Source of the DNA: a virus
IMG/VR virus record: IMGVR_UViG_3300045776_000084
Strand: one strand, 5' to 3'
DNA: 36,037 nucleotides
In this document: in pieces, positions 1,588 through 25,830 of the stretch
How the letters are laid out: every line of letters begins with the position of its first letter
How positions within the stretch are numbered: the first letter of the stretch is position 1
Position numbers and translations under genes: made by a program
Notes under the pieces: model-generated
Told to the model about the DNA's origin: nothing
What the model saw: only the letters and a program-made list of their open reading frames with translations
The model's database searches: none

Positions 1588-2043
1588 TTAGCCCTTCTGT
1601 CCCGGTGTTCCGACAGCGGCGGATGTGGTAGCAGTTGCTGGCGGAGTGGTCGGGTCAGTTAGTTCAGCTTTCAGCTCTGTGAGGCTCGTAGTGGGGTCTT
1701 TTTGTTTTGCTGCGGTTATCATAGCGGCGATGTCCGAGAAGGAAGCGGTGCCCTTGTTGATGGCATATGGTGCGGCAATTAGGCCAATGAGCGCGGTTAA
1801 AACTATTGGAAGGTTTGAAAGATACACACTCACCATAGCCACGTCAGTCAAGTGGGTTACGTGGTAGATAATCCGCTGAACGACCCACATAGTAAAAAAT
1901 GAAAACAAGAACATGAGCACCCGGGTGGATGAGGGTTCCCCGCTGGGCTCACTGATAAGCCCCCGCACGAAAGCTAGGGTTCGAGTTGTCCATCTCGTTA
2001 TGACCATCGAAAAGCCCCCCCTGTTAAGGGGGGCGGTATTCAT
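1588..2043 (-). CDS. Small integral membrane protein (3 predicted TM helices, PT-rich tail). The real start may be M13 at 2007, just after a terminator-like hairpin.
   Basis: Hydrophobic helices. ATGA overlap with the stop of the upstream ClpB-like gene. The GC hairpin 2014-2033 lies inside the first 12 codons. Confidence 0.45.
   Translation of the reverse strand: MNTAPLNRGGFSMVITRWTTRTLAFVRGLISEPSGEPSSTRVLMFLFSFFTMWVVQRIIYHVTHLTDVAMVSVYLSNLPIVLTALIGLIAAPYAINKGTASFSDIAAMITAAKQKDPTTSLTELKAELTDPTTPPATATTSAAVGTPGQKG
2014..2033 (-). terminator. GC-rich stem-loop (GCCCCCC-TTAACA-GGGGGGC) followed by TTTT on the minus strand, immediately after the ClpB-like stop
   Basis: Perfect 7-bp G/C stem and 6-nt loop seen directly. 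On the minus strand a T-run follows (plus 2010-2013 AAAA). Confidence 0.35.
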
Positions 2044-6248: not shown

Positions 6249-6665
6249 ATGAGGTGTGCAATGTTAAACAAAGGATATGTGTACGTCATCGGAAACCGGG
6301 AGCAGGGGCTGTATAAAATAGGGTCCTCCCGCATTGACCCCCTCTATCGACTAGAACAAATTCAGCCCCACTGTCCATTTGAACTGGAGATGATTGAATT
6401 CTCCCTCGTCAAAAATGCCAAAAGAATCGAACAACGGTTACATGAGTTCTTTGAGTATGATAGGTTACGAATCAACAGTAAATTCACCGATTGGTTTAAA
6501 TTAACTGCTGATAAGGTTAAGAAAATCGGAGCGGGCATACCCAAGGATGAGGTCATAGATGACCCCACCCTCCAGTTAAAAGCAGAGCCAACATCCACCC
6601 CACCTGAGCCTTATTGTAAAGCCTCTGAGTTTCAAGAAGGCTCAGGTCTACTCATTTCAACATAA
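6249..6665 (+). CDS. GIY-YIG superfamily / T5orf172 (MUG113-like) domain protein
   Basis: KGYVYVIGN...LYKIGSS...RLEQI motif near the N-terminus, typical of the T5orf172/GIY-YIG family. The likely real start is MLNKGY at 6261. Confidence 0.5.
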   Translation: MRCAMLNKGYVYVIGNREQGLYKIGSSRIDPLYRLEQIQPHCPFELEMIEFSLVKNAKRIEQRLHEFFEYDRLRINSKFTDWFKLTADKVKKIGAGIPKDEVIDDPTLQLKAEPTSTPPEPYCKASEFQEGSGLLIST

Positions 6666-7317
6666 GGCTATCTATAGTTCGAGTGAGGTTCTCTTTAGCT
6701 TGAGCAGTAAAGGCTGCTGCGAACTCAGTGGTAAAATATAAAGGGTCACGTTCGAGGAACCTGTTGAGGATGGCGGCTCTACCTTTACGGAATGCTTCTT
6801 CCGGTACAAAGGGCTTATACTCCAGCCAGATGTTGTTGCCGTTCCTTTCGAATACCTCCCAAGTTGATCCAAGGCTGGCCAAGTCCATGTCGGTGATGAC
6901 ACTCCCGGCTCCCGTGGTGTAGGTGGTAAGCATAATTTCGGCCATGGCTTCCTCAGCTTGGTTGTAGGTTACCCCCAGTGTCTGGGAGTCTCTCAGAAGC
7001 AGGGCAGCAGACCGTTCTTCGTTGTTCTGAGCCTTCGGGTCGTATTCCGCGTCATGGTAAGCCCATGCGAAGAACTCCACTGCGGTTAGTGATTTGGTGC
7101 ATAGCTCCTCATGGATTTCCAGACCATTAAAAATGTGGCCGAGGTCATGGTAGCGCCGATGGGGCTCGTTGTACTTCCGCACCAGCTTGAACAAAACATC
7201 CTGAATCCCGGCTTTGTCCTTGCCGGGTGCCCGGTCAACAAATTCTTGAAGGAAGTTCATACCTGTATGATACCAAAATACGAAAGGCGAGTCTAGAGCC
7301 GTCGCCAAATTTACCAA
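6652..7317 (-). CDS. Hypothetical protein, possibly an HD-superfamily phosphohydrolase (RRYHDLGHI motif)
   Basis: H-R-R-Y-H-D-L-G-H near the N-terminus, plus later His/Asp residues. The family assignment is from memory only. An alternative start is MNFLQEF at 7260. Confidence 0.4.
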   Translation of the reverse strand: MVNLATALDSPFVFWYHTGMNFLQEFVDRAPGKDKAGIQDVLFKLVRKYNEPHRRYHDLGHIFNGLEIHEELCTKSLTAVEFFAWAYHDAEYDPKAQNNEERSAALLLRDSQTLGVTYNQAEEAMAEIMLTTYTTGAGSVITDMDLASLGSTWEVFERNGNNIWLEYKPFVPEEAFRKGRAAILNRFLERDPLYFTTEFAAAFTAQAKENLTRTIDSLMLK

Positions 7318-7480: not shown

Positions 7481-7888
7481 TTACAGGTAGGACGGCGCAA
7501 ATATGTATAAGGCAAGCCAATGCACCACGGATGCACGCTTTCGCCAATCCACAAGGTTTCCTTGCTTTGATGTCTCCACCAAGATTGTGGCTTGCCTATC
7601 TTGTACAGAAGTCTTTTGGAGCGGAGCCCCTTCTGCCGAGTTTCCTACACACAAAGTTCTCGACGGTGCCGCTGTCATTGTGGCGAAAGCTATCCAGTGA
7701 TAGTATTCTCTGACTACAGCTCCAGATTCTTTTGCCTCTATTCCGGTTTCTACCGAACCATACTTGGCCATATCGACCCACTCGCCAGTTTTGTCGTCGA
7801 AGATTTCGAGTTTAGCTATTTCGAGTTTAGCCCCCCAAATGAGTTGTACACGGAGATATTCTTCCGGCCAACGACGGCTTCCCCGCAA
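7481..7888 (-). CDS. Hypothetical protein. Its 5' region overlaps the upstream Zn-finger ORF by about 70 nt across a tandem 15-bp duplication and a G6 run.
   Basis: ORF with protein-like composition. The start is uncertain (MAKYGS at 7771 is an alternative). Confidence 0.35.
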   Translation of the reverse strand: MRGSRRWPEEYLRVQLIWGAKLEIAKLEIFDDKTGEWVDMAKYGSVETGIEAKESGAVVREYYHWIAFATMTAAPSRTLCVGNSAEGAPLQKTSVQDRQATILVETSKQGNLVDWRKRASVVHWLALYIFAPSYL

Positions 7889-9279: not shown

Positions 9280-9610
9280 CAGTCTCCTTGGGTCTGCGGG
9301 AGCAGGTATGCTCTAAATCGGGGTAGCAATCATCCAATCCGTTGGGACAGCCGTCGCAGGGGCTATTCTGAGGATTTAGTTCGGGCAAGGGCTCAACAGG
9401 AGCGTTGTGGATGGCATAGTCAACCCGTCCCCCCGTGTAAGCACAGTTCAGTGCCATCGCTACCTGCTGCTGGTCAGATTCGCTTAGCAGCTCTTTGATG
9501 TAGCTGAATTGAAGTAGGTCGTTAAACAACTCCTTCACAAATGCGTCCCGACGTTTGGCCTCATCAGGTTGGTAGATTACTCGGGCTTTCCAATTTGGTT
9601 CGCTCATCAC
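9269..9610 (-). CDS. Hypothetical protein (113 aa)
   Basis: ORF in the minus-strand array. A 4-nt overlap with the upstream HNH gene. Confidence 0.4.
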   Translation of the reverse strand: MMSEPNWKARVIYQPDEAKRRDAFVKELFNDLLQFSYIKELLSESDQQQVAMALNCAYTGGRVDYAIHNAPVEPLPELNPQNSPCDGCPNGLDDCYPDLEHTCSRRPKETDEN

Positions 9611-12421: not shown

Positions 12422-12450
12422 GTTGCACCTCTACTTATACACTAGAAATA

Positions 12451-12807
12451 CTATCTTGTCTGAACCGTGATGAGCATGTCACACGACCCCTCATAGTACA
12501 CGAGGATGTAGCGATTCCCGGCTGTCAAACCGTAGCCTGGGAAGCCCCCGTCGCCACTACCTTCGGCGCAAAGACTAAGAGCACGGAGATTGCCTGAATC
12601 CTCACGGATGACTGTGGGGTGAATCCCATAACCACCCTGCATATGGCCGATAGTAATTATCGTGCCAGTGACGACCCTCGTAGGGCGGTTAGGGCCGAGG
12701 GTACAGCCAGTAGTAACCCCGATAAAGAGGGCTATAAAAAGCGTGAAACACACAGGAAATAAGCGCATCAATCTCCTTACCATTTCCAACATACGGTTCT
12801 CCTTCAC
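12451..12807 (-). CDS. Putative lipoprotein (signal peptide plus lipobox GVTTGC)
   Basis: Hydrophobic N-terminus LFPVCFTLFIALFIGVTTGC ending in a lipobox-like sequence and Cys. Possible starts are MLEMV or MRLFP. Confidence 0.45.
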   Translation of the reverse strand: MKENRMLEMVRRLMRLFPVCFTLFIALFIGVTTGCTLGPNRPTRVVTGTIITIGHMQGGYGIHPTVIREDSGNLRALSLCAEGSGDGGFPGYGLTAGNRYILVYYEGSCDMLITVQTR

Positions 12808-13260: not shown

Positions 13261-14046
13261 CTATAGTTGGTCTTTATGCTTAACAAGTTGATTCAACAAA
13301 CAGTCATCGGCTCTTTTGTCGTTTCGTTTACGAAGAAGCACTGGCTGTACAATATGATTGCTTCGCGTGGCGTAAAGATAGCGGACTTCAACTACATCCA
13401 ACTTATTCAATTGGAACTTTCCACGAAGAGACACCCCCGAGACCTCATATAGCCGTCCCCGTTCGTCGTAGACACCAATGCGAACGCTGTTGTGGCCTTC
13501 CGGGCTGGGTCCGATAACCACAGCATCTAAAGTGCGAGTGAACTTCAGCTTGAAGTGATTCCCAGAACGACCCTCACTGTAGGACTTAGCCATGTTTTTG
13601 ATGACCACGCCCTCGGAATGGGACTCCAACAGGGCAATGACCAGCTTAATTTTGGCGGTATCGTCGCGGGTGGTCTTAACCGGGATGATGCGAGGGCTGA
13701 ATCCGTCGAACTCAGCATGATAGCGGGATTCGCGGTACTCGTAGGCATCGTGGATGATGGTCTCATCACCTAAAATTAGGGAATCGAACACGTGGATGGT
13801 GCTCTTTACTAGCTCCACGTCGATGACGAATTGCTCAAGAGGGTGGGAACGAAGGGCGTTGATGAGAACCACGGGGAGGGGTTTTCCACTCTCGCCTTCC
13901 CGGTTCCAGTTACGGATGGTTTTCCCCTGCTTGCAAATCGTCCGCCGTTCTCCGTTGAACTTCTCCTGAAATCCATAGTTGGAGTTATGGATGAACCGCT
14001 CCAACTGCTCTTGCGTGATTTCAGTGAGTAGTTCAGACTTAATCAT
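13261..14046 (-). CDS. Compact ATP-dependent nucleic-acid (probably DNA) ligase of the nucleotidyltransferase superfamily, with a variant motif I K-F-N-G-E-R
   Basis: Motif I EKFNGER. Motif III VIDVELV. Motif IV EGVVIKN. Motif V HFKLKF. A partial OB-like C-terminus. GAGG RBS. Confidence 0.6.
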   Translation of the reverse strand: MIKSELLTEITQEQLERFIHNSNYGFQEKFNGERRTICKQGKTIRNWNREGESGKPLPVVLINALRSHPLEQFVIDVELVKSTIHVFDSLILGDETIIHDAYEYRESRYHAEFDGFSPRIIPVKTTRDDTAKIKLVIALLESHSEGVVIKNMAKSYSEGRSGNHFKLKFTRTLDAVVIGPSPEGHNSVRIGVYDERGRLYEVSGVSLRGKFQLNKLDVVEVRYLYATRSNHIVQPVLLRKRNDKRADDCLLNQLVKHKDQL

Positions 14047-14188
14047 GTCGCCTCAACGGTGTCTCCATCTTTCGCTTAGAGCGTCCAGTGCCGCCACCAG
14101 AAAGCTGACCTTCTCGAACTCATCGAACAGTTTCTCGTACCGGATTTTGTTGAAAAGTGAAGTCAAACTCGGGATTGTCCATATTCAG

Positions 14189-14218
14189 AGTATACGGGGA
14201 GTACCGGGGGTTTGTCTA
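14189..14218 (-). promoter_or_regulatory. Conserved promoter-like element directed leftward (TAGACA – 18 nt – TATACT) upstream of the ligase operon
   Basis: Same motif family as 25530-25558 and 31265-31294 (TAGACAAACCC...CCGTATACT). It sits in a divergent intergenic region 14047-14294. Confidence 0.4.
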
Positions 14219-14294
14219 TTTAATTTCGAAAAAATCTCGACTATCAAATGTTAAGGAGTTTCCCGACTACTTCCCTTATTCTTAAGGGGACTTC

Positions 14295-17200
14295 ATGATG
14301 CAAATTGAAAACTGGCGTGGCCTGTGGAACCTATTGACAACCTATGCGGTCAACGACATCGCGTATTATGAGGGCTCATCCTACTTCGCTTTGGACATCA
14401 ACACCGGGAAAGCCCCAATCCTTGCAAACATAGGGGTTTACTGGTCTCCAGTGGCCTTAGCCGGGGAGCAGGGAATTCAGGGTCAGCAGGGCGTTATAGG
14501 CCCCACTGGAATTCAAGGTGTACCCGGAATTCAAGGGCCAGCAGGGAACCCCGGAATTCAGGGAATTCAAGGAAATCAAGGTGACCGCGGGCCTGAGGGT
14601 TTGCCCGGAATTAAGGGCGATACCGGGAGTCAGGGGATTCAGGGAGTCAAGGGCGACACCGGAATTCAAGGTGTACCCGGGGTTCAGGGAGTCAAGGGCG
14701 ATATTGGCGACACCGGCCAAGGCTTAGTTTGGCGGAACACTTGGGAGGCGATTGCCACCTACAACACCTATGACTGTGTCCCCTATGAGGGAGCATCATA
14801 TATCTGCCTTGCCCCCAACGTCCTGAATGTGTCCCCAGATTCGGATGATTCAAAGTGGGGCTTACTAGCGCAGGGCGGCGGTACAATTGATTGGTCGGAG
14901 ATTAAAGATGTTCCTACCACGGTAGCCGGGTACGGCATCACCGACCTATCCCCCGTGGCAACGTCGGGCTCGTACAACGACCTCAACAACAAGCCAACCT
15001 TAAACTTCGACCCGGCTGGGTCAGCAAGTACGGTACAAGGGAGTCTTACAGCGGAGGTAACAAGAGCGGAGGGGGTTGAGGCTTTGAAGGCTAACACTTC
15101 TAGCCTTGCTCCAGTTGCCTTCTCAGGGGATTACGCTGACCTGAGTGGAACACCCACCCTCGGTACCGCCGCCACTCAGAACAGCTCCGCGTTCGACCCG
15201 GCTGGTACGGCCTCTACAGTTCAAACCAACCTCACCTCGGAAACTTCGCGTGCTCTCGCGGCGGAGGGTCTGCTCGTCCCGAAGACCACAACTATCAATG
15301 GCAAAGCCCTCTCCAGCAACGTGACCTTGGCGATAACTGACTTTGGGGGAACGCTCCCGCACGCTCAATTGCCGACTTTGCTCAGCACCGACATTCCAAG
15401 CATCCCCGAATCACAGGTCACCAACCTCGTCAACGACTTGGCCGCAACCGAAAAGACTGCGAACAAGGGCGCGGTGAACGGCTATGCTGGCTTAGACGCT
15501 AACGGGCAGCTCTATACTTCACAGCTCCCAGCACTTGCTATTGTGAGCACCTCTGTGGTCTCCTCTCAGACTGCGATGCTGGCACTCACAGCTCAGCAAG
15601 GTGACGTAGCTATTCGTGAGGACATCAACGAAACGTTCATCCTTGCTGCGTCTGACCCCACCCTCCTCGCCAACTGGAAGCAAATTCTCACCCCGGCATC
15701 CCCGGTACAGAGTGTCAACGGACAGACAGGAATTGTGAACCTCGCCATCCCGGCAGCTCAGGTCAATAGTGACTGGGCATCGGGGAGCGGTGTAACTCAA
15801 ATTCTCAACAAGCCCACCCTCGGCACCGCCGCAGCTCAGAATTCATCTGCCTTTGATTCCGCTGGCTCTGCTGCGACAGTGCAGACCAACCTCACCTCGG
15901 AAGTCTCTCGTGCAACCACTGCGGAAGGTCTGCTGGTTCCAAAAACAACCACGGTAAATGGTCACGCCCTATCCGCTAATGTCACGGTCTCTGCTTCTGA
16001 TCTTACAACGGGAACCCTGCCTGTTGGTCAACTTCCAACAATCCCATATAGCCAACTTTCGGGCACGCCAACGATTCCTTCTGTACCTCTCACGACCATT
16101 CAAAATAATGGTGTCACGGTCACCCCCGTCTCAGGAACGGTCAATCTCATACCCGGCTCGAACGTCACCTTGACCACCTCAGGTGACTCTATCACCGTTG
16201 CCTCCACGACAACATTCTCCGCCCTGACGGGTTCCACCAACACCACAGCCGCCATGGTGGTGGGTACAGGGTCGTCTATCGCTGCAACTGGTACTGGTAC
16301 CATCACTGCTACCTCCTGCCCAACGGAGACCACCCGCGCTGAGGCTGCTGAAGCTCTCCTGCTACCTATCACCACGGCAGCCAGCACCTATGCTACTCAG
16401 ACCAACCTGACGGCTGAAGTTACTCGTGCAGAGGCGGCTGAGGCACTGCTTGTGGCCAAGACCACAACAATTGCTGGCCACCCACTGTCTGGCAACGTGA
16501 CTGTTGCGTATACTGATCTAACCGGCCTTCCGACTCTTGGAACTGCCGCATCACACGCATCTACAGACTTTGATTCTAGCGGTGCCGCAGCGTCGGTTCA
16601 GACAACTGTAAGCGCATCCATCTCTGCCGAGACAGCGCGGGCTGAAGCTGCCGAAGCTGTCCTTACCACAGCCGTCGCTGGTAAGCAATCTGCCCTCGGG
16701 TACACACCAGAGAATTTGGCCAACAAGGGTGTAGCAAGTGGTTATCCAACCCTTGATAGCACAGCGCACATCCCGATCAATCAACTTCCTGCCTCTGTGC
16801 AGGGAGCAATGTCATACGTTGGTGTGTGGAATGCAGCCACCAACACTCCGGCAATTAGTAGTGGAGTAGGAACTAAGGGTTTCTTCTACAAGGTCAGTGT
16901 TGCTGGCTCGACAACAGTTGATGGCAACTCTATTTGGCACGTTGGCGACATGCTCATCTTTGATGGAGCTGCGTGGGATAAGATTGACAACTATGAAGCT
17001 GTAACATCTGTTGTGGGGCGCACTGGTGCAATCACTCTTAGTGAGGCAGACATCACTGGGTTGGTTGCTGACCTTGGCACACTCACTGCGGGCATCGCCG
17101 GAGAAGTAACCCGTGCGGAAGGCATTGAGGCCACGCTGGCCGCAAACCTCGCAGCGGAAGTTACAAGGGCTGAAGGTGTAGAGAGCACACTTGCCCCGAT

Positions 17201-17984
17201 AGCAGGGCCACTGTTTAATGGCCCTGTTGGTATTGATGTAGCTACTCCAGATCAAGCTCTTACTCTTGCCACTGGTGATGCTGTTGCGTGGATGCAACCG
17301 CAGAGATTTGGGGGTGGCGGTGGTACACTAGAAGGCGGAGATACATCCGATACGGGGCTTTCCAGAACGGATGTTGGAGTTGTGGCGGTTGGTAACGGTC
17401 AACCCGGCGATACTTCTGGGTCGTTGCAGTGTGCTGTAATCCTTGCTGGTAACCTTGCCAACTCGGCAACTACTGACACTACAAACGCAGCAAATATCAC
17501 AAGCGGTGTGCTGCCTCTCGCGCAAGTCCCGGCAATCCCCGTTAGCAAGACCACTGGGTTTGCCACTGTCGCCACAACTGGCACATATAGTAGCCTCACA
17601 GGTCTTCCGGCCATCCCGGTTGTAGGAACTGTCACCCCGGTTGTAGATGGAGCCGCCTCAATAGGCAGCACTGGTAAATGGGCAGACGCTGGACACATTC
17701 ACCCAACTGACACCAGCCGTGTGGCCACCAGTACCACGGTCAATGGTCACACGCTAAGCAGCAATGTGGTTGTTTCCGCTTCCGACCTCACAACTGGCAC
17801 GCTGCCCGTTGCCCAGCTCCCCACGATTCCATACAGCCAACTTTCGGGCTCCCCCACTTTGGGTAACGCCGCACCTTTGAATGTGGGAACCACAAGCGGA
17901 ACTGTGGCGGCTGGGGACGACCCTCGGCTTAACGCTGCGGTATCCACCGCGAGAGCTGTAGCTTTCGCCATTGCCTTCGGTTAA
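14295..17984 (+). CDS. Tail fibre protein (1229 aa) with a collagen-like Gly-X-Y region and repeated fibre modules
   Basis: AAGGGGA RBS. About 29 consecutive G-X-Y triplets (aa 55-145). Repeated modules SGSYNDLNNKPTL, LGTAAAQNSSAFD..TVQTNLTSE..RA..AEGLLVPKTTT.NG.ALS.NVT, and TRAEAAEALL. A C-terminal module shared with the 860-aa fibre. Confidence 0.75.
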   Translation: MMQIENWRGLWNLLTTYAVNDIAYYEGSSYFALDINTGKAPILANIGVYWSPVALAGEQGIQGQQGVIGPTGIQGVPGIQGPAGNPGIQGIQGNQGDRGPEGLPGIKGDTGSQGIQGVKGDTGIQGVPGVQGVKGDIGDTGQGLVWRNTWEAIATYNTYDCVPYEGASYICLAPNVLNVSPDSDDSKWGLLAQGGGTIDWSEIKDVPTTVAGYGITDLSPVATSGSYNDLNNKPTLNFDPAGSASTVQGSLTAEVTRAEGVEALKANTSSLAPVAFSGDYADLSGTPTLGTAATQNSSAFDPAGTASTVQTNLTSETSRALAAEGLLVPKTTTINGKALSSNVTLAITDFGGTLPHAQLPTLLSTDIPSIPESQVTNLVNDLAATEKTANKGAVNGYAGLDANGQLYTSQLPALAIVSTSVVSSQTAMLALTAQQGDVAIREDINETFILAASDPTLLANWKQILTPASPVQSVNGQTGIVNLAIPAAQVNSDWASGSGVTQILNKPTLGTAAAQNSSAFDSAGSAATVQTNLTSEVSRATTAEGLLVPKTTTVNGHALSANVTVSASDLTTGTLPVGQLPTIPYSQLSGTPTIPSVPLTTIQNNGVTVTPVSGTVNLIPGSNVTLTTSGDSITVASTTTFSALTGSTNTTAAMVVGTGSSIAATGTGTITATSCPTETTRAEAAEALLLPITTAASTYATQTNLTAEVTRAEAAEALLVAKTTTIAGHPLSGNVTVAYTDLTGLPTLGTAASHASTDFDSSGAAASVQTTVSASISAETARAEAAEAVLTTAVAGKQSALGYTPENLANKGVASGYPTLDSTAHIPINQLPASVQGAMSYVGVWNAATNTPAISSGVGTKGFFYKVSVAGSTTVDGNSIWHVGDMLIFDGAAWDKIDNYEAVTSVVGRTGAITLSEADITGLVADLGTLTAGIAGEVTRAEGIEATLAANLAAEVTRAEGVESTLAPIAGPLFNGPVGIDVATPDQALTLATGDAVAWMQPQRFGGGGGTLEGGDTSDTGLSRTDVGVVAVGNGQPGDTSGSLQCAVILAGNLANSATTDTTNAANITSGVLPLAQVPAIPVSKTTGFATVATTGTYSSLTGLPAIPVVGTVTPVVDGAASIGSTGKWADAGHIHPTDTSRVATSTTVNGHTLSSNVVVSASDLTTGTLPVAQLPTIPYSQLSGSPTLGNAAPLNVGTTSGTVAAGDDPRLNAAVSTARAVAFAIAFG
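14457..14720 (+). repeat. Collagen-like triplet-repeat coding tract (GIQG/GVKGDTG repeats) inside the tail-fibre gene
   Basis: Period-9/18 nt repetition (GGAATTCAAGG / GGAATTCAGGG variants) encoding Gly-X-Y. It produces a spurious antisense ORF 14457-14720. Confidence 0.7.
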
Positions 17985-18014
17985 GACTTTCGAGCCCTAT
18001 ATAGGAGCATTTTC

Positions 18015-19898
18015 ATGCAAGTAATGGTTGGCAACAACTACGGTTCGTACTCATTTAACGCCACAACAGGTGTCATTACCCTGTCAGGGTTGCCGACTCC
18101 TTTAACTCAAGAGCAGGTGAAGCTGATTATTTGTGCAGCGACCAACACAATCATATTCAACCTAGCCGACCCAACTCAGACAGCCGTTGTCTCAGGGGGT
18201 AACACCATTGCCCTATCATATAACACAACTGGGATGGACGGTCACCCGCTTCAAATTTTCTTAGAGGTACCGGGTACTGAAGCTCAGCAGGGACAGAGCA
18301 ATGAAACCCCGTTGATGACTGTAATCGCGGGGCTGACGCAGGATGTAATCCCCCAGTACCAAGAGATTCCCCTTACATCAGGGGCGACGGCGGTAGTAAC
18401 AAGTGACGCCCACATAACGTCGTCAACGGCGCAAGCCGGGGGTGTTACTCCTTCCCAAACCTTACTGGCCATCGCAGGTCTTACCAATGACCCCACCCCC
18501 CAATATCAAGAGATTCCTCTCGGGCCGGGTGGGAACGCCGTTCTTGTTAATGGCTCCGCTTTCACGCAGCCTATCAGTGGTCAGTATAACGCCGTGCCCC
18601 CTACACTCGGGTCAGGCAGCGTGGGTGTTTTGCAGACTGATGTAAACGGTAACCTAAGAGTCGTCTCTGGTTCTATTGACGGGACAATCCTAGATACGCA
18701 GTCATCTGTTACCTTAGGGGCGGGGGCAACCTACAACGTTGCCGGGTATGGTTTTCTATCCTTTCAATTCAACGGTGCGTGGTCAGGAAACATCAAGATT
18801 GAAGCTAGCAACGATGGTGTGACATGGACTCAGCAGTATGTTCAGTACCTCGGCACAGGGTGGGTCTCGGACGTAATCAACCTTCCGGGTGCCATCGTAC
18901 AAGTCACTGCCGCCAGCATCTACATGCGGTACAACGTTATTAAGTTGAGCGGCACGGCCACCGTTACAGTTGTAGGAAACACTGGTGCCATATCAACCAC
19001 CAGTCTGCTTGGTATGGCATTTGATGCAGCCTCGGGTGTCCAGCTCAACACCAATATCACTAACCTGAATAAGGACACCAGCAACGCTCTGATTTTGAGC
19101 GATGCCCCTGCTCCTATACCCATCTCTGGAGGTATCGGCTCTACTATCATCATAGATACTCAAGGGTACGAGTCTCTGAACATTACAACTCAGGGTTTGG
19201 CTGGGGCTGTTACCACCTCGAATGATAAGGTCACTTGGTCAGCTCTGTCTGGCACTCCTCTAGTGTTGGGAACTCTTGTAACCTCCGTTGCGGCCAACAC
19301 TGGGTATAGCTTCCCCTGTATCGCACGATTCATCCGCTTCGTACTTACCGCCGTAGGTTCCGCTACCGTGTTTCTTCGTAGCACCCCGTGGCAGAGTGCC
19401 TATACCACTACGGTTCCCACCAGCACTGCTAATAACAACTTGAGCCAGATTAACACCACTACAGTGGCATCGGCTGGGGTTGGTGGCATACTCGCAGTGG
19501 GGGGTAACGTCGCCCCTGGTTCAGCTCAGACGGCGTACCCTCTGGTGGTAGGTGGGGTTGACCCTACAAGTGCCACTCGTCGTATCCAGACAGACGCCAC
19601 AGGACGCATCAATGCCAACATGGTGACTACGGATGCTGCCTCCGTTCAAAGAGGCGTGGGCGTCATGCCCCCGGCCACCACCAGTCAGAACGTTGCACCA
19701 TTGGCAGTACAGGAGTTAACCCAATTTGAAGGGCAGTCCTTCGTTGAACTTCTTGGTCAGATTCTTACCGAACTGAGAATTTCCAACCATTACAACTTCA
19801 ACCTGCCGAGTTTGCTGACTACCGGAACTATTAATAGCACGGGCGACGAACCAGCAGCTCTTCGTAATGACCCGAATATTTCTACATTGTTTGGCTAA
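18015..19898 (+). CDS. Phage structural (tail/fibre-associated) protein with an internal duplicated module
   Basis: The duplication is ...AGLT.D..PQYQEIPL..G..AV.... Ser/Thr/Gly/Asn-rich composition typical of tail proteins. It immediately follows the fibre gene. Confidence 0.5.
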   Translation: MQVMVGNNYGSYSFNATTGVITLSGLPTPLTQEQVKLIICAATNTIIFNLADPTQTAVVSGGNTIALSYNTTGMDGHPLQIFLEVPGTEAQQGQSNETPLMTVIAGLTQDVIPQYQEIPLTSGATAVVTSDAHITSSTAQAGGVTPSQTLLAIAGLTNDPTPQYQEIPLGPGGNAVLVNGSAFTQPISGQYNAVPPTLGSGSVGVLQTDVNGNLRVVSGSIDGTILDTQSSVTLGAGATYNVAGYGFLSFQFNGAWSGNIKIEASNDGVTWTQQYVQYLGTGWVSDVINLPGAIVQVTAASIYMRYNVIKLSGTATVTVVGNTGAISTTSLLGMAFDAASGVQLNTNITNLNKDTSNALILSDAPAPIPISGGIGSTIIIDTQGYESLNITTQGLAGAVTTSNDKVTWSALSGTPLVLGTLVTSVAANTGYSFPCIARFIRFVLTAVGSATVFLRSTPWQSAYTTTVPTSTANNNLSQINTTTVASAGVGGILAVGGNVAPGSAQTAYPLVVGGVDPTSATRRIQTDATGRINANMVTTDAASVQRGVGVMPPATTSQNVAPLAVQELTQFEGQSFVELLGQILTELRISNHYNFNLPSLLTTGTINSTGDEPAALRNDPNISTLFG

Positions 19899-19913
19899 TA
19901 AAGGAGATTTTCC

Positions 19914-20627
19914 ATGCAGATTCAGACTCAGGTTGGCCCCATCGCAACCACACAATCTATCGCTCCCGGCTCTATTGCCGCCGTGCGTTCGGGTAACCTT
20001 GGCGATACTATCGTTTCCGAGTTGCACGGAAGATTCTACGAACAGGCATATCGTCTCAACCTGTATTCCGCAGGTATGACGACCCTTACCTCAATTTCCA
20101 ACGCCACCTTCACCACGGCTACTGGCATGTCCGCTACCCTTGGTACCGCAGCTACTGGAACCCCGGTCATCGGCATTTGGAACCCGTCCACCTCCACCAT
20201 CAATGCGGTCATCCTTCAAGCCACTCTCAACGTCACCCTCACCGCCCTCACCGCGACTGGTGCAGGTGGATTTGTTTGGGGTGTGTTTGCTGGTAACGGT
20301 GCCCTCACCTTAGGCAACGCTCCCATCAACCGCAAGACTTTGACGGCTGGTGGCTCACAGTGCAAGAACCTGTCTGGCCTAGCTCTTACGGGTTTGACCA
20401 ACGTCGGTGTTGTCGTTGCCGCATCTACCCTCAACGGGGGGCCTATCTACAACGTCTCCGAAGTGGGCACGGCTGCTGGTTTCCACACGGTAGCTTTGAC
20501 CTCAGTTGAGAACCTTGACGGCTCAATCATCCTGCCCCCGGGCGGTGTGCTTGCTCTCTTTGCGACGACCACCCCGGTGGCCTTGTCCGCAGTCGGCTCC
20601 CTGCTCTGGGAAGAAGTACCTGTGTAA
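19914..20627 (+). CDS. Phage structural protein (Thr/Ala/Gly-rich), possibly a fibre distal component
   Basis: AAGGAGA RBS. The composition resembles neighbouring structural genes. It is followed by a strong terminator. Confidence 0.45.
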   Translation: MQIQTQVGPIATTQSIAPGSIAAVRSGNLGDTIVSELHGRFYEQAYRLNLYSAGMTTLTSISNATFTTATGMSATLGTAATGTPVIGIWNPSTSTINAVILQATLNVTLTALTATGAGGFVWGVFAGNGALTLGNAPINRKTLTAGGSQCKNLSGLALTGLTNVGVVVAASTLNGGPIYNVSEVGTAAGFHTVALTSVENLDGSIILPPGGVLALFATTTPVALSAVGSLLWEEVPV

Positions 20628-20642
20628 CCTCCGCACCGCAAC

Positions 20643-20672
20643 AAAAAGCCCCCAGAGATGGGGGCTTTTTCA
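20643..20672. terminator. Bidirectional rho-independent terminator (AAAAAGCCCCC-AGAGAT-GGGGGCTTTTT) between convergent structural operons
   Basis: A 7-bp GC stem flanked by an A-run upstream and a T-run downstream. It lies between the plus operon end (20627) and the minus operon end (20771). Confidence 0.65.
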
Positions 20673-20770
20673 GCTCTTGATGCTGCCAGACTTATGTCGC
20701 CTCACGAGAACGGTATCTTCGCCTTCGAAACGCCAGCAGAACGGTATCACAATGTCCTCACCAGCAGGTT

Positions 20771-21298
20771 TTAGGTGCAGGTGCAGGTGGTGACATACTT
20801 CGCTCCACCAAGCGTGTAGTAGACAGTGATTTGGTAATCGCCCAAATAGGCTGTGTAAGAAGCTAATGAGGCAGTGTTTGTGATGTCAGTGTACACATAT
20901 AACCCGAACCCCGAGTTATTAATGTCGCTGTACAGCCATGTGGTGCCCCACAAGCTGGTGCTTGTGCCCACCGTGTCGGTGCTCTGTGTTGCAGTCCAAC
21001 TCGTTGACCCAGTTGTTAACGTTGCAGGTACGTTAGTCCCCGCCTTCATCAAGTAAACACTTACCTGATTCACCGTGAGATAGGAGATGTTCTGGATTCT
21101 GCGCTGGTAGCTGGCGACGATACCGTTGATGGTTGCACCTGCGGGGATGGCGAACCCGAATCCCGACCCTTGCAGCGTGGCGATAGTCTCATTACCATGG
21201 GTTATGGACTGAGAAGCCAGTGTGGTGTTCGCCACGTTGTTGGGGTTAGTCCAACTCGATCCAATTCCTGATGTTGCTGTAAGCCCTGAGCTTGGCAT
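20771..21298 (-). CDS. Hypothetical structural protein downstream of the 860-aa fibre (tail-fibre accessory/tip?)
   Basis: Thr/Ser/Asn/Gly-rich. Its start codon overlaps the stop region of the fibre gene. Confidence 0.4.
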   Translation of the reverse strand: MPSSGLTATSGIGSSWTNPNNVANTTLASQSITHGNETIATLQGSGFGFAIPAGATINGIVASYQRRIQNISYLTVNQVSVYLMKAGTNVPATLTTGSTSWTATQSTDTVGTSTSLWGTTWLYSDINNSGFGLYVYTDITNTASLASYTAYLGDYQITVYYTLGGAKYVTTCTCT

Positions 21299-23880
21299 TA
21301 GCGCACCCCGTAGAGGCTGAGAGCAGCACCAGCAGCAGTGGTATCAGCAGATGAAGGAGCGGTCATGGTTAGCACATCGCCAACTGCAAAGCTCACAGGT
21401 GAACTGATGGTGAAGGTTCCCGTTGTTCCTGAGGCTGCTACTGCGATGGTTCCGAAGCTCGTGCCATTCTTTAGGAGCGTGAATGTGCAGGAGCCAGTAG
21501 CTGCTGTCATCAACGTGAAGTATTGGTTCGTGGTGCCGGATGCGATGGTGTACGCGATGCTGGCTTTGTTGTAATACAAGACCTGCGATGCAGTGAAGAT
21601 GCCCGTAGCGAAGCAGGACTTTTCAACTGGCTGCTGTCCAACCGTGGTGATGGTTCCTGAAGCCAGAGATAAGCCAGCACCTACTGTGGTGATAGCTGCG
21701 AGGGCGACACCGTTTATCTGGTGTGCCGTTGTGGCGTTGATGGTGGGTGCGGTAACCACACCCGTTGTATTAGCGGTTGGAAGAGCACCCGATGGTGTAA
21801 CCGACCCGGTGTCAGTCCATGTGGTTGTGCTGTTAAGACTGACGGTTGCCATGTACAACTCAGCACCCGTTGTCCTTCCGTACACCTTGTAGCCTGTCGC
21901 ACCCGGAACAGCCGTCCAGTTCACAGTGACCGTTGAGGTTGAGCCAGTGGTTACCTTGCTGGTTTCGGCTGAAGCCAACGAGGTTCCAACACCATCAACC
22001 GCAACCACTCGGTAATAGTACGTTCCTGCCGACAGAGTGCCACCCGTAGTTGCAGTAGTAAATGCCGCATTAACGGGGGTTGAAAGCTGGCTCACCACTA
22101 CCTCATTAACCGTGGCTTGGTTGGCTAGGACATTCCCACTAACATCAGCGTGGCCGCCTGTGCCAGTAACGCAGAGCTGCCCATTAGCGCCGTTTCCTGA
22201 TACACCAGTAGTGTACCCAAGGCTAGGGTTATAGAAGAGAAGGCTGCCAGTTGCGCTGGATACGCCGTATGTACCAACAGTTGCCGAAGCACAATACAAC
22301 GAGCCATCATAAGCACCAGCGGTCTTGCCGATACTAAGTGCGCCAGATGCCCCGGTGTTCTGGCTAAGGTAGGCACTGTACGTTCCCACAACCAAGAGGT
22401 CGGTGAGTTTCAGTGTGCCACTATAGTCAGATGCAGTTCCGTTGCCTATGGCAAGGATACCCGCTGCTGTGCGGGATAGGCCCGTGTCGCTTGCGCCGAC
22501 CTTCAACACACCGGAGATGGTTGGGCCGGAAAGCGGTGCATACGTTGAAGCTGCAACCGTTGTACTCAACCCTCCTAGATTAGTCAGGGCCGTAGATGCC
22601 GAGGCAACATCACTCAGGTTGTTCGTTGTATTCAGAGGGGTATACCCCAACACCGCCTGACGGCTCGTATCCGATGGGTGAATGTGTCCAGCGTCGGCAA
22701 ACTTACCGATGGAACCAATCGTAGCTGTACCATCCATGACCGGGGTTGTGGTAGCCACGACGGGGACGGTAGGGGTACCTGTCACTTGACCATAAGGTAG
22801 TGATAGTACAGAGAGGGTAGTCAGGGTGCTGTTGGTGGTGGCGGTAACATTAGCCGAGGTACCCGTGGTGTTAGCCGCATTGCTTGGAATATCCCCTGAC
22901 AATAATGTTGGGAGTTGAGCATGGGGTAATGTACCCGACACCTGTGCAATAGGTAGTGTGAATGTACCGATGTCACTGAGATCAGTGGTAGCCAACTGTG
23001 CGGCGGTGAATACTCCAGTGGATGAGTTATAAGAGTTAAGACACGTATGCGCCACGGAAGCAAACGTAGTAGCCAACGTGGTCGTGTTGGGTAATGCACT
23101 TACCATGACAGCGGTGATACCGCTGACCGTGCCTGTGAACGTGGGGCTGGCTTTGGGGGCTAGAAGAGCTTCAGCAGCTTCCGCTCTGGTTGTCTCCGTA
23201 CTCGCAGCACCAGCAGCATCAAATGCGCTGGATGGTTGGAAAGCGGCCGACCCCAATCCTGACGTGGCGATAGTGACTGCATCACCGCTCGTGGTCAGGG
23301 CAATATTGCTTCCCGGAACTAAGTTGATGACACCAGAGGCCGGAGTGACCACCACACCATTGTTTTGAATTGTGGTGATGGGTACGCTGGGAATGGTCGG
23401 CGTCCCGCTCAGGTTAGCGTAAGGAATCGTTGGGAGCTGGGCTACTGGGAGTGTGCCAGTTGTTATATCGCTTGCACTGACGGTAACGTTGGCTGAGAGA
23501 GCGTGACCGTTCACAGTGGTGGTCTTTGCGACTAGGAGACCCTCTGCCGTGGTTGCTCTTGTTACTTCTGAGGTGAGATTGGTCTGTACCGTTGCGGCGG
23601 AGCCAGCAGCGTCAAAGGCCGTGATGTTCTGGGCGGCGGCGGTGCCAAGGGTTGGCTTGTTGTTGAGGTCGTTGTACGAGCCCGACGTTGCCACGGTTGC
23701 AAGGCTAGACCCCCCACCGCCACCAACCGAAATGTCGAGTTTACCGTCAGACCCAAGAAGGGGTACCTTCCCGGCATCGGCTGAACCTTGAGAAATGGTG
23801 ACCGCACCCACGAGTCCCTCAGTTAAGGGGCCTTGTGGATTCGGTTGTAGGAGTTTAAGAATTTTGAAGTCGTCGGCCAT
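21298..23880 (-). CDS. Second tail fibre protein (860 aa), paralogous to the 1229-aa fibre
   Basis: GAGGGT RBS. A Gly run GGGGGSS. Modules SGSYNDLNNKPTLGTAAAQN...TVQTNLTSEVTRATTAEGLLVAKTTTVNGHALSANVTVSASDITTGTLPVAQLPTIPY... are about 85% aa-identical to segments of the plus-strand fibre. Confidence 0.7.
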   Translation of the reverse strand: MADDFKILKLLQPNPQGPLTEGLVGAVTISQGSADAGKVPLLGSDGKLDISVGGGGGSSLATVATSGSYNDLNNKPTLGTAAAQNITAFDAAGSAATVQTNLTSEVTRATTAEGLLVAKTTTVNGHALSANVTVSASDITTGTLPVAQLPTIPYANLSGTPTIPSVPITTIQNNGVVVTPASGVINLVPGSNIALTTSGDAVTIATSGLGSAAFQPSSAFDAAGAASTETTRAEAAEALLAPKASPTFTGTVSGITAVMVSALPNTTTLATTFASVAHTCLNSYNSSTGVFTAAQLATTDLSDIGTFTLPIAQVSGTLPHAQLPTLLSGDIPSNAANTTGTSANVTATTNSTLTTLSVLSLPYGQVTGTPTVPVVATTTPVMDGTATIGSIGKFADAGHIHPSDTSRQAVLGYTPLNTTNNLSDVASASTALTNLGGLSTTVAASTYAPLSGPTISGVLKVGASDTGLSRTAAGILAIGNGTASDYSGTLKLTDLLVVGTYSAYLSQNTGASGALSIGKTAGAYDGSLYCASATVGTYGVSSATGSLLFYNPSLGYTTGVSGNGANGQLCVTGTGGHADVSGNVLANQATVNEVVVSQLSTPVNAAFTTATTGGTLSAGTYYYRVVAVDGVGTSLASAETSKVTTGSTSTVTVNWTAVPGATGYKVYGRTTGAELYMATVSLNSTTTWTDTGSVTPSGALPTANTTGVVTAPTINATTAHQINGVALAAITTVGAGLSLASGTITTVGQQPVEKSCFATGIFTASQVLYYNKASIAYTIASGTTNQYFTLMTAATGSCTFTLLKNGTSFGTIAVAASGTTGTFTISSPVSFAVGDVLTMTAPSSADTTAAGAALSLYGVR

Positions 23881-23932
23881 TGTACCCTCAATTAAGAGGG
23901 TGATAGCCTTATTTTTTAGGACTTATCCGGCC

Positions 23933-24130
23933 TTACTCATCGCCAGCATAGGAGACGATGTCACCGGGCTGAAAGTCGAAGCCCATGACTCCTGGGTGAC
24001 GTTGCCCGATCCTCCCGGACACAAACCGGGCGACGACGAGGTCTCTGACGGATGAGAGCGAGCTGGTGAGGCACAACAGGAGAACCCTCCCCTCCTCCGG
24101 TGGTACTGTTGCTGGTGTCCACTGTTTCAT
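23933..24130 (-). CDS. Small hypothetical protein (about 65 aa, start MKQWTPAT)
   Basis: The ORF 23933-24316 in the track is trimmed to the internal ATG that does not overlap the upstream gene. Weak RBS. Confidence 0.2.
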   Translation of the reverse strand: MKQWTPATVPPEEGRVLLLCLTSSLSSVRDLVVARFVSGRIGQRHPGVMGFDFQPGDIVSYAGDE

Positions 24131-24185
24131 CGTATTTTTCCATGGGGGGCGTCTTTGACTTTGACAGCTACATTTGCCACGCCCA

Positions 24186-24773
24186 TCAGTACGTACCCCA
24201 GTAGGTTCTACCCGGCAAGTAAGGTGCCCATGCGGAGTCGAACTCACAGTTGGAGGGCGCGGCGGCGAACAGAGGGGCGACAACCTCAGCCTTCCACCCG
24301 GCCAAGCCGCAGCCAATCTGCGTCATCTGATAGGTCTTCTCTGGGTGCCGCTTTGCCCACATGATGAAGCAGTCGATGTAGAAGCGGAGGGTTTCCAGAG
24401 CGATTTCGTACCCCGGTGAGTTGGCGGGTTTCGCACAGGTCGGGATGGCGAAGGTGTTCCCTTGAGGGCCGAACCCCTGATTCATCCTCGCGCCGTGAGT
24501 TACACGGGCGACCTTGGCAGCTCCGCCACCGTGGATACCCAGTTCATTGCTTCCGAAGACGAACACCTTAGGCTCGGGTACCACTATGTCCATGGCGTTA
24601 AGGGCGTCATCCCATGCTTGAACTTCACAAGCAGCTACTCCCGGAATGCCCCACACCCAACCGAGGGAGTTCCCAGCTTCATCCAGAATTACCAGCCGGG
24701 AACCGGGGCTCAGGGTTTCGGCGTACAGGTAAGCACTCGGAACCGCCTCCAAAACTTTGGTTTTGCTGTCCAT
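24186..24773 (-). CDS. Rossmann-like protein with a G-S-N..G-x-H-G-G-G-A-A motif (possibly a SLOG/LOG/DprA-like nucleotide-processing fold)
   Basis: VFVFGSNELGIHGGGAAKVA glycine-rich loop. Start taken at MDSKTK with an AGGAGA RBS. The first 30 codons of the track ORF are rejected. The family is uncertain. Confidence 0.4.
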   Translation of the reverse strand: MDSKTKVLEAVPSAYLYAETLSPGSRLVILDEAGNSLGWVWGIPGVAACEVQAWDDALNAMDIVVPEPKVFVFGSNELGIHGGGAAKVARVTHGARMNQGFGPQGNTFAIPTCAKPANSPGYEIALETLRFYIDCFIMWAKRHPEKTYQMTQIGCGLAGWKAEVVAPLFAAAPSNCEFDSAWAPYLPGRTYWGTY

Positions 24774-24783
24774 CTCTCGTCTC

Positions 24784-25509
24784 CTAAAAGGGCACCACGT
24801 CATGCGGATTGAAGCCACGGGCAGCGGTAGCAGCCGCACGGTCTGTGGCGGCTTGAGCCTCACGCTTGGCCTTCTCGTCGGCGTACTGACGGGCGGCTAT
24901 GATGCGTGCAGCAGCCTGTTCAGCCTTCTTGGCTATATCGGCGGTGAACTGGTCGCAGATACGGGTGTAGTCGGCAGTCGCACGGGTGTAAAACTTGGCG
25001 TAGCTGACTTGATTTTTGTACTCAGGGACGCCCTTCTTAATGGACTCACCCATTACCCACAGTTCGCGGGGGAGCCACATCGCCCAAGTGTTAGCGGCAC
25101 GCCAGTCTTCAATCAGCTTGGTGGCACGGGCAACAGCCGCCTCGTAAGCGGGACGGGCTTCATTGGCTTCAGCGGTGCGCTTGGCAGTGTTCTGGGCAAT
25201 CTTCTCGTCAGCCAGACGCCGCTCCAGCTTATCCACCGCAGCTTGCAGCTTGGCGAACAGCTCGGGATTGTAGCTCTGGAAGTGATTGATGCATTCAGAG
25301 CCCACAGGGGCGGACTCTCCGGTCTCGGGATTGTAGATGAGGAATACGTAACGGATGGGGTGGTCGCAAGTGCATTTTCCAGAAGGACGACCAAGGTCAA
25401 TGCACTCACCACGATACTCATACTTTGAAGGGTCACCCAGACGCTGGACAAACTTGGCTACGATGCCGAGGAAAGATAAAGTATTCCCAAGTTTGCTCGT
25501 GTCTGCCAT
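24784..25509 (-). CDS. Hypothetical protein with an N-terminal Cys/His cluster and a C-terminal Ala/Lys/Glu-rich helical region
   Basis: GECIDLGRPSGKCTCDHP...GSECINHF. GGAGGG RBS. A conserved promoter lies immediately upstream. Confidence 0.5.
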   Translation of the reverse strand: MADTSKLGNTLSFLGIVAKFVQRLGDPSKYEYRGECIDLGRPSGKCTCDHPIRYVFLIYNPETGESAPVGSECINHFQSYNPELFAKLQAAVDKLERRLADEKIAQNTAKRTAEANEARPAYEAAVARATKLIEDWRAANTWAMWLPRELWVMGESIKKGVPEYKNQVSYAKFYTRATADYTRICDQFTADIAKKAEQAAARIIAARQYADEKAKREAQAATDRAAATAARGFNPHDVVPF

Positions 25510-25529
25510 TAGTGTTTCCCTCCATTTAC

Positions 25530-25558
25530 AGTATACCGGGACTCACCGGGTTTGTCTA
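25530..25558 (-). promoter_or_regulatory. Conserved sigma70-like promoter (TAGACA – 17 nt – TATACT, then GTAAATGGAGGG RBS) upstream of gene 24784-25509
   Basis: Near-consensus -35/-10 with a 17-nt spacer read directly. Nearly identical to the element at 31265-31294. Confidence 0.5.
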
Positions 25559-25593
25559 ACATTAATTTTCAAACGCGGAGCAATGAACGCCAT

Positions 25594-25830
25594 TTATGAG
25601 TCATTGTATTTTTTCCAGAGGACAACCTTGAGTTTGCCATCATATGACCATACATCAAGAAAAAAGAAAAACGCACCGAAAAGGCTAAGGACAGGGATGA
25701 GAGATAGGAAAACAAACCGGAGAGCGTCAGCCAAAGTCACATCCCTGCCATACCGGCCATACCGCCATGCTTTCTGATACAAATAAAATGCGATCACCGC
25801 TTCCAAAAGCCACCACCAAAATATCGCCAT
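25594..25830 (-). CDS. Small membrane protein (78 aa, 2 TM)
   Basis: MAIFWWWLLEAVIAFYLY... and LSLIPVLSLFGAFFFF hydrophobic helices. Confidence 0.4.
   Translation of the reverse strand: MAIFWWWLLEAVIAFYLYQKAWRYGRYGRDVTLADALRFVFLSLIPVLSLFGAFFFFLDVWSYDGKLKVVLWKKYNDS

Follow-up and report, generated by a model that had tools for sequence, protein, structure and literature searches.

The DNA analysed here, referred to below as the window, is a 36,037-base fragment of a huge-phage-like, uncultivated genome from peat metagenomes (IMG/VR record IMGVR_UViG_3300045776_000084), and covers 36 kb of a genome that is probably larger than 300 kb. Its minus strand carries four copies of a promoter-like element, one of which, at 25530-25558, lies upstream of a gene for a 241-amino-acid (aa) protein of unknown function (24784-25509). 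The other copies lie upstream of an rIIA-like gene (32944-35352, 802 aa from its ATG), a Ku gene (30254-31240; PF02735, E=1.7e-20) and an ATP-dependent DNA ligase gene (13261-14046; PF01068, E=1.9e-9), all on the minus strand. The rIIA-like gene is followed on the same strand by rIIB (31719-32951; PF26926). Both were recognized by tblastn matches to genes annotated as rIIA and rIIB in T4-like and jumbo phages, the window rIIA being only distantly related to that of T4 (24-32% identical). All four elements are sense-oriented with respect to these genes, and they are intergenic or located at gene ends. As promoters, they would drive short minus-strand units: rIIA-rIIB, Ku, the 241-aa gene together with its downstream genes, and the DNA ligase operon.

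The initial annotation of this DNA had described a recurring element and proposed to verify it by a pattern search. The pattern TAGACAA-N(6-16)-GTATACT has exactly three matches in the window (14189-14218, 25530-25558 and 31265-31294), each of them on the minus strand, and none in 100 dinucleotide-preserving shuffles of the window, which confirms that the recurrence is real. Allowing one mismatch added a site upstream of rIIA, at 35375-35404, which reads TAGCCAAAAAGGTGTCAACCCCGGTATACT and consists of TAGCCA and TATACT 18 nt apart, with the core CCCCGGTATACTGT found in the other copies. The rIIA copy, first reported as partial (35372-35386), is therefore a full copy with one mismatch.

Coordinates of the complete elements, all on the minus strand, are as follows. 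The element upstream of the 241-aa gene (25525-25578) has its -10 hexamer TATACT at 25530-25535 and its -35 box TAGACA at 25553-25558, separated by a 17-nt spacer that ends with CCGG, and the A/T-rich tract GAAAATTAATGT lies upstream. The Ku element (31260-31319) has TATACT at 31265-31270, TAGACA at 31289-31294, an 18-nt spacer and the upstream sequence GCTAAAATTG; its -35 box overlaps the stop codon of a 106-aa open reading frame (ORF; 31292-31612). In the rIIA element (35371-35429), TATACT (35375-35380) and TAGCCA (35399-35404) are separated by 18 nt and preceded by the A-tracts AAAAAAAATCTCTAAAACAA. In the DNA ligase element (14184-14242), TATACT (14189-14194) and TAGACA (14213-14218) are also separated by 18 nt, and the upstream A/T tract is ATTTTTTCGAAATTAAA. 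The four elements scored 24.8, 34.1, 35.9 and 33 bits, respectively, with profile R1. A second, sequence-only profile, R2 (alignment A2), was made from eight sites of related phages and contains no window sequence at all. With R2, the window sites took the first four ranks, at E=5e-6 for Ku, 8e-6 for rIIA, 4e-5 for the ligase and 0.075 for the 241-aa gene, the next match being at 0.93.

The element is thus about 60 nt long and is made of an A/T-rich tract resembling an upstream promoter (UP) element, a -35 box TAGACA or TAGCCA, a 17- to 18-nt spacer that ends with C-S-G (S is C or G), and a -10 hexamer TATACT. The combination first described, TAGACA and TATACT 17-18 nt apart, holds for the spacing and for TATACT at four of four sites, and fails for the -35 box of rIIA. 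In the alignment of the window copies, the -35 box is immediately followed by AA, the spacer is rich in C and ends with CCGG or CCCG, and the 3' part reads GTRA..GGAG..AAAC up to the start codon. Similarity extends from about -56, in the A/T-rich tract, to the Shine-Dalgarno sequence, a wider region than the element of roughly 30 bp proposed by the initial annotation. A repeat finder recovered the family independently, as D5 and D10 (spanning 29-41 nt), and profile matches cover 53-60 nt. Since the copies resemble each other over about 60-75 nt only, they do not belong to a larger dispersed repeat. The annotation had also envisaged a larger repeat unrelated to gene starts; this does not describe a family whose similarity is short and whose copies all precede genes in sense orientation.

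The window lineage has at least seven distinct copies. A strict-pattern scan of metagenomes identified three further members in peat contigs outside the window, before other genes: a CCA-adding-enzyme-like gene (recognized by inspection of its sequence, without a domain search), a 78-aa ORF and an ORF of about 145 aa. Two more members are present on a 463-kb contig. No copy was found with the collagen-repeat, tail-fibre-like genes that occupy 14295-23880, between minus-strand genes.

A generic sigma-70 scan of positions 20000-36037 gave its highest scores to the three family sites of this region (10, 10 and 9 of 12): the two TAGACA sites match the consensus at five of six positions in each hexamer, and the -35 box of rIIA at four of six. 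The total number of generic matches was at the chance level (7 found vs 7.3 expected), as would be the case if the elements resulted from chance similarity or were a non-functional dispersed repeat. However, the specific pattern was reached by no shuffle, the window sites were predicted from other genomes by R2, and all sites lie in sense orientation before genes. Chance is effectively refuted by these observations, and we regard it as extremely improbable; it is the extra shared sequence, rather than the hexamers alone, that distinguishes the family.

Related phages were identified with the 241-aa protein, which defines the family P0001-P0016 and has 16 relatives (31-100% identity), among them P0002 at 82%. 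This family has no match in the phage collection and is absent from cultured phages. The relatives' loci have a conserved gene order (5'-3' exonuclease ... DUF5715 - rIIA - rIIB - Ku ... 241-aa family ... DNA ligase - RNA ligase ... ClpB), on contigs that reach 328, 340 and 435 kb. The promoter architecture was found at orthologous positions, upstream of Ku, the 241-aa family gene, DNA ligase and rIIA, in relatives with 39-71% protein identity. It precedes the 241-aa family gene in contigs L014 (71% identity), L021 (54%) and L015/L027 (50%), Ku in L027 (3816-3879) and DNA ligase in L015 (15792-15855); in close relatives, further small genes are preceded by the same architecture. Among the 17 sites of the close group, a G at -13 is present in 17 and the -10 hexamer is TATACT or TATATT in 17; the -35 box is T-R-G-M-Y-A followed by AA, and the tract from -56 to -38 is 76% A+T, vs 42-50% in the flanks. 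Relatives' -35 boxes of the TGGCYA or TAGCYG type match TTGACA at three to four of six positions, with the spacing unchanged.

More distant relatives (L018, L023, L024 and L025; 39-46% identity) carry a variant of the promoter, TAGCYG or TACCYG, 18 nt, (C)CG, and a -10 hexamer TAG(A/T)(A/T/C)T. This variant precedes the rIIA, Ku, 241-aa family and ligase genes in this group; orthologous or variant ligase promoters are found in L024 and L025, and variant Ku forms in L023, L024 and L025. A degenerate clade regular expression detected 4, 6 and 6 sites in L023, L024 and L025, respectively, all on the coding strand, vs 0.2-0.4 in shuffles. In the same three contigs, the promoter pattern also has a match within the 3' end of rIIA, some 100 nt ahead of rIIB (L023 6142-6171, L024 6178-6207, L025 5509-5538); this match could represent an internal promoter for rIIB, of the kind present in T4, or simply conserved coding sequence, and the window has no equivalent of it. 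When IMG/VR and GTDB genomes were scanned with the pattern, the only matches were isolated ones of a chance-like nature, which lack a UP-like tract and score at most 13 bits with R1. The motif is absent from the A/T-rich huge phages LR756500 and LR756501, whose vault-like protein is 40% identical to that of the window, and from L013, likewise A/T-rich. In conclusion, placement in sense orientation, architecture, orthologous positions and the ranking of the window sites by a profile made from relatives only all agree with the element-specific promoter class that had been suggested.

The degenerate clade expression has six matches in the window, vs 0.44 in shuffles. Two of them, reported by neither profile and matching only this expression, are possible weak members of low confidence, both on the minus strand: TGGCCG-17-TATCCT with a G at -13 (30156-30184), before an 81-aa gene (29883-30128), and TAGACT-17-TATCAT (7267-7295), where an ATG lies 6 nt after the -10 hexamer, in a leaderless-type arrangement, and the gene ends at 6652. 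The site at 12434-12462 (minus strand, CAGACAAG-17-TATAAG), once counted as a related element, is not a member: it was missed by both R1 and R2 at E<=10 with filters off, and it has no UP-like tract, no CSG and no T at the last position of the -10 hexamer. A promoter-like site of another, more canonical type precedes the gene for an 819-aa vault-like protein (25888-28347, minus strand). It reads TTGCAC-17-TATTGT in the window (about 28395-28440, minus strand) and TTGAAC-17-TACAGT before the vault-like gene of L027 (about 9540-9590), i.e. the two share TTGMAC-17-TAYWGT.

Sigma-70 promoters are characterized by a -10 hexamer TAnnnT, with A second and T sixth, by a -35 box resembling TTGACA placed 16-18 nt from it, and by an optional UP element that is A/T-rich at -40 to -60 (PMC2613000, PMC2988021). 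In the window, the -10 hexamer is TATACT at all four sites, the -35 box is TAGACA three times (five of six positions) and TAGCCA once (four of six), and A/T-rich tracts such as ATTTTTTCGAAATTAAA lie upstream. From the A/T tract, the -35 box, the 17- to 18-nt spacing and the TAnnnT hexamer, we infer that the four elements are probably strong sigma-70-type promoters of a huge phage, which serve prereplicative units and are most likely read early by the host polymerase. In a bacterial-type RNA polymerase, the A/T-rich tract (about -56 to -38) would be bound by the alpha C-terminal domains, TAGACA or TAGCCA by sigma region 4, and (C)SG-TATACT by sigma regions 2 and 3. Transcription would start about 7 nt past the -10 hexamer, giving a predicted leader of about 13-17 nt that begins near a strong GGAG ribosome-binding site. 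The additional shared positions (AA after the -35 box, G at -13, C at -8 and the leader) may reflect the optimization of one promoter class by the phage. The polymerase would most likely be that of the host, acting early in infection; the genes served are of a prereplicative type (rIIA/B, Ku, ligase), which makes early or middle expression, and thus temporal regulation, plausible.

Other polymerases and sigma factors were considered. Phage multisubunit RNA polymerases read the promoters of phiKZ and AR9 type, which are short motifs rich in A and T, located at the start site and not known to include a -35 box or UP architecture. These promoters resemble the present family in being conserved motifs specific to jumbo phages, and differ from it in geometry: the bipartite arrangement with 17-18 nt found here points to a bacterial sigma-70-type holoenzyme. 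Sigma-54 promoters have a -24/-12 geometry with a spacing of 4-5 nt; a sigma-54 type, which the TGGC in the boxes of relatives might evoke, was rejected because 18 nt separate the box from the downstream element. The RpoS-type -10 element is CTATACT; the hexamer is identical, but -13 is occupied here by G and not by C. The palindrome GTATAC was rejected as a dimer-binding site because L021 has GTATAT.

Several observations weigh against sigma-70-type promoters used as such by the host polymerase. First, the -35 box deviates from TTGACA in a clade-specific manner, its second position being A or G and never T, and an invariant G occupies -13, where TGn is usual. Second, no A/T-rich tract is present upstream in the distant relatives L023-L025. 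Third, the second, canonical promoter type before the vault-like gene hints at more than one promoter class. Finally, the -35 and -13 features persist across relatives with 45-57% G+C, and a phage-encoded specificity factor could be involved instead.

Promoters needing such a factor would be of a middle type, read by the host core enzyme equipped with a sigma of the phage, or through a host sigma that a phage activator bound to the TRGMYRAA box has remodelled, by analogy with T4 MotA/AsiA. In T4, the MotA box (TGCTTtA, centred at -30 and 11-13 bp from the -10 hexamer) replaces the -35 element, and both rIIA and rIIB have middle promoters (PMC2988021). The window elements would likewise combine a sigma-70-type -10 hexamer with a phage-specific box that replaces or modifies the -35 element, and they also precede rIIA. 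The clade-specific box (TAGACA, TAGCCA, TGGCYA, TAGCYG) is kept over the whole range of G+C contents mentioned above, the -10 hexamer keeping only TA..-T, and a separate TTGMAC-17 promoter is conserved before the vault-like gene. Relatives also encode small DNA-binding candidates in the same region, a protein with sigma region 4 only and a GerE-type helix-turn-helix (HTH) protein. However, the window has neither of these two proteins at the syntenic positions, and a Pfam scan of 20 window proteins showed no sigma, AsiA-like or MotA-like family. In addition, the window box does not resemble TGCTTtA: it occupies -36 to -31, at the canonical 17-18 nt from the -10 hexamer, and matches TTGACA at five of six positions, and the near-consensus UP-like tracts together with the strong -10 hexamer suit strong promoters that are factor-independent. 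Dependence on a phage factor is conceivable but rather unlikely.

The sigma-like protein of relatives, P0017 (L027 4987-5538), is encoded just after Ku and has 183 aa; it combines a functionally uncharacterized N-terminal part with sigma-70 region 4 only (PF04545), and region 2 is absent. Its -35 recognition helix is altered (APSRITQIS), compared with the canonical TRERIRQIE of its homologue P0018. A phage sigma factor was rejected as a candidate reader of the element, as relatives yielded no sigma-like protein other than this one, whose sole sigma region is region 4 and which is absent at the syntenic place in the window. A more specific proposal, which we consider unlikely, is that the TRGMYRAA box and the G at -13 are recognized via a phage-encoded specificity protein, sigma-region-4-like or HTH, of the kind that relatives encode beside Ku, and are not tuned to the host sigma. 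If this were true, uncultivated huge phages would have a new takeover system of the sigma-appropriation type, and the same promoter would drive leaderless mRNAs in L015/L027, where the ATG lies 6-8 nt after the -10 hexamer, and mRNAs led by a Shine-Dalgarno sequence in the window lineage.

The conserved GC-rich spacer (CCCGG or CCGG) had been proposed to hold a site for an additional factor. In relatives, the mid-spacer varies (CTGACTGCTGCT in L015, CCATCCCCATT in L021), and CCGG occurs only in the window lineage; all that is kept of the spacer is its first AA and its last three positions (C-S-G). A factor site in mid-spacer is thus unsupported, and the conserved C-S-G would fit a contact resembling an extended -10 element better than a separate operator. 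A related proposal is that the unit is mainly a regulatory or recombination cassette, with an operator in the spacer, or with a terminator-promoter module for gene shuffling as in the promoter early stem-loop (PeSL) cassettes of T4-like phages, promoter activity being secondary. PeSL cassettes are repeated early-promoter modules at gene-cassette boundaries (PMC2839356, PMC4122927), and the present family resembles them in that terminator hairpins directly abut the promoter at several sites of relatives (Ku in L023, L025 and L027; ligase in L024). It also resembles them in the variable small ORFs of one junction, between rIIB and Ku, as predicted by PeSL-mediated shuffling: the 106-aa ORF of the window (31292-31612) is zinc-ribbon-like, L027 has a GerE-type HTH ORF (3347-3691), L024 a 31-aa ORF (7763-7858), and L023 and L025 have none, which suggests cassette turnover at promoter junctions. 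GGT(A/G), common to the window spacers, also precedes GGTATACT by about one helical turn. Against these points, the mid-spacer is unconserved outside the window lineage, no stem-loop adjoins any of the window promoters (no hairpin was found within about 30 nt upstream of the four), the most strongly conserved positions are RNA polymerase contact positions, and recombination junctions at the repeats are hypothetical. We consider a cassette whose promoter activity is secondary to be improbable.

Compared with described systems, sigma-70-type promoters read by the host enzyme, which we favour, have their closest analogue in the early promoters of T4. These are 'uber' promoters whose elements are UP, -35, TGn and -10, along with further regions of consensus, used by the host sigma-70 polymerase (PMC2988021). 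As in T4, many near-identical copies are present in one large, lytic-type phage genome, with UP-like A/T tracts, a -35 element, a 17- to 18-nt spacing and a strong -10 hexamer upstream of prereplicative genes, and consensus extends outside the canonical elements (AA after the -35 box, G at -13, C at -8, and GTRA..GGAG..AAAC in the leader). The differences are that positions -15 to -13 are C-S-G (CGG or CCG) instead of TGn, that the -35 box is TAGACA or TAGCCA, that the -10 hexamer is TATACT vs TATAAT, and that the present phage is only distantly related to T4, its timing and use of the host polymerase being putative. In the jumbo phage PA5oct, which depends on the RNA polymerase of its host, 32 conserved promoters of the type TTGAC/TATAATA are accompanied by stem-loop terminators (PMC7318152). 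This phage shares with the window distantly related rIIA and rIIB genes and a family of highly conserved intergenic -35/-10 motifs, located in PA5oct around transcript starts, together with stem-loop terminators; however, the motif sequences differ, the two phages have no close sequence relationship (no nucleotide match), and the PA5oct sites are backed by RNA-seq, whereas those of the window are predictions. We found no earlier description of the promoters of this clade in the literature searched; as a kind of feature, a family of conserved promoters in one large phage is well known.

The start codon had been placed, together with a GGAG ribosome-binding site, about 12 nt after the element. 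This arrangement exists for rIIA, Ku and the 241-aa gene, whose ATG follows the -10 hexamer by 22, 24 and 20 nt, respectively, and not for the ligase, where the distance is 142 nt. The short leader GTAAATGGAGGGAAACACTA of the 241-aa gene (25510-25529, minus strand) contains a Shine-Dalgarno sequence and is predicted to be transcribed; the D5 similarity spans the -10 hexamer through the ribosome-binding site. Equivalent leaders lie at 31241-31264 (Ku) and 35353-35374 (rIIA), both on the minus strand, so that these three copies have leaders of 20-24 nt with GGAG. GGAG leaders with a start 15-24 nt after the -10 hexamer are found in the window, in L014, in L021 and at one of two L047 sites. In L015/L027, the ATG is only 6-8 nt after the -10 hexamer at all five promoters of the family (L015 9985-10003, 13695-13715, 15840-15858 and 7245-7263; L027 3864-3882), a spacing which implies that the mRNAs of this 328-kb relative would be leaderless. 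None of the contigs retrieved begins at a predicted transcription start.

The 142-nt leader that separates the ligase promoter from the ligase ATG at 14046 (14047-14188, minus strand) has no GGAG near the -10 hexamer. Its fold is no more stable than that of shuffles (z=+1.2), which makes a structured RNA unlikely. It was observed that this leader includes a possible ORF of 37-39 codons with a TTG start, ...KIRYEKLFDEFEKVSFLVAALDALSERWRHR (14050-14166, minus strand), which was not called by the gene finder on the identical contig L007.

Two intrinsic terminators were found on the minus strand. The first (31645-31682) follows rIIB and consists of a 12-bp G+C stem and then UUUAUUUU (-28.5 kcal/mol, z=-3.9); it closes the rIIA-rIIB unit. 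The second (25839-25870) follows the vault-like gene and consists of a 10-bp stem and then UUUUUCU (-20.2 kcal/mol, z=-3.1); it lies upstream of a 78-aa ORF and of the 25530 promoter. These terminators close the units that precede the promoters and are located 300-360 nt upstream of the latter, with a small ORF in between. A weaker, terminator-like hairpin with a poor U-tract follows Ku (30218-30246, minus strand) and is not significant (z=-1.2).

A different motif, CTTAA-N(0-4)-GAGGG, was observed within a short inverted repeat immediately before the start codons of large tail-fibre-like genes, at 14266-14294 (plus strand) and 23881-23905 (minus strand) of the window, and at about 15450-15477 of L024 and 15085-15110 of L018; examples are CCCTTATTCTTAAGGGGACTTC-ATG and CACCCTCTTAATTGAGGGTACA-ATG. 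The 3' arm of this hairpin is the Shine-Dalgarno sequence, and the motif may function either as a promoter of late genes or as an operator in translation.

Near-identical contigs were retrieved from several peat and bog metagenomes (>99.8% identity for L039 and L040, where compared), and a nucleotide search with 8 kb of the window gave no match to cultured and deposited phages. Shoulder and repeat domains of the major vault protein were identified in the vault-like protein (PF11978, E=3.5e-26), which is kept in the huge-phage clade and is about 40% identical to proteins in LR756500, LR756501 and LR756503, which are 'uncultured phage' records of 462-735 kb. A ClpB-like AAA+ ATPase gene (2040-4568, minus strand) is split by an intein with a LAGLIDADG homing-endonuclease domain. 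Upstream of rIIA, a gene on the minus strand (35427-36029) encodes a C-terminal fragment of UvrB, with helicase C, UvrB and UVR domains; its product is about 217 aa long according to gene calls on identical contigs (L008 1-83). Other minus-strand genes encode an R2K ATP-grasp protein, a PTH2-like hydrolase and an RNA ligase with an HNH domain, and no tRNA gene was found in the window. A jumbo phage of Acidobacteriota, Tunturi 5 (309 kb), has been described (PMC11924767).

The family leaves general knowledge of phage promoter function unchanged and is of modest general interest. For the clade itself, it provides the first usable map of transcription units in uncultivated peat and soil phages of 300-460 kb that have no cultured relative. 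The search profile predicts promoters across their genomes and aids the annotation of gene starts, including leaderless ones. The element helps to tell prereplicative from structural modules, and it guides the search for the host polymerase or the phage factor that would read it.

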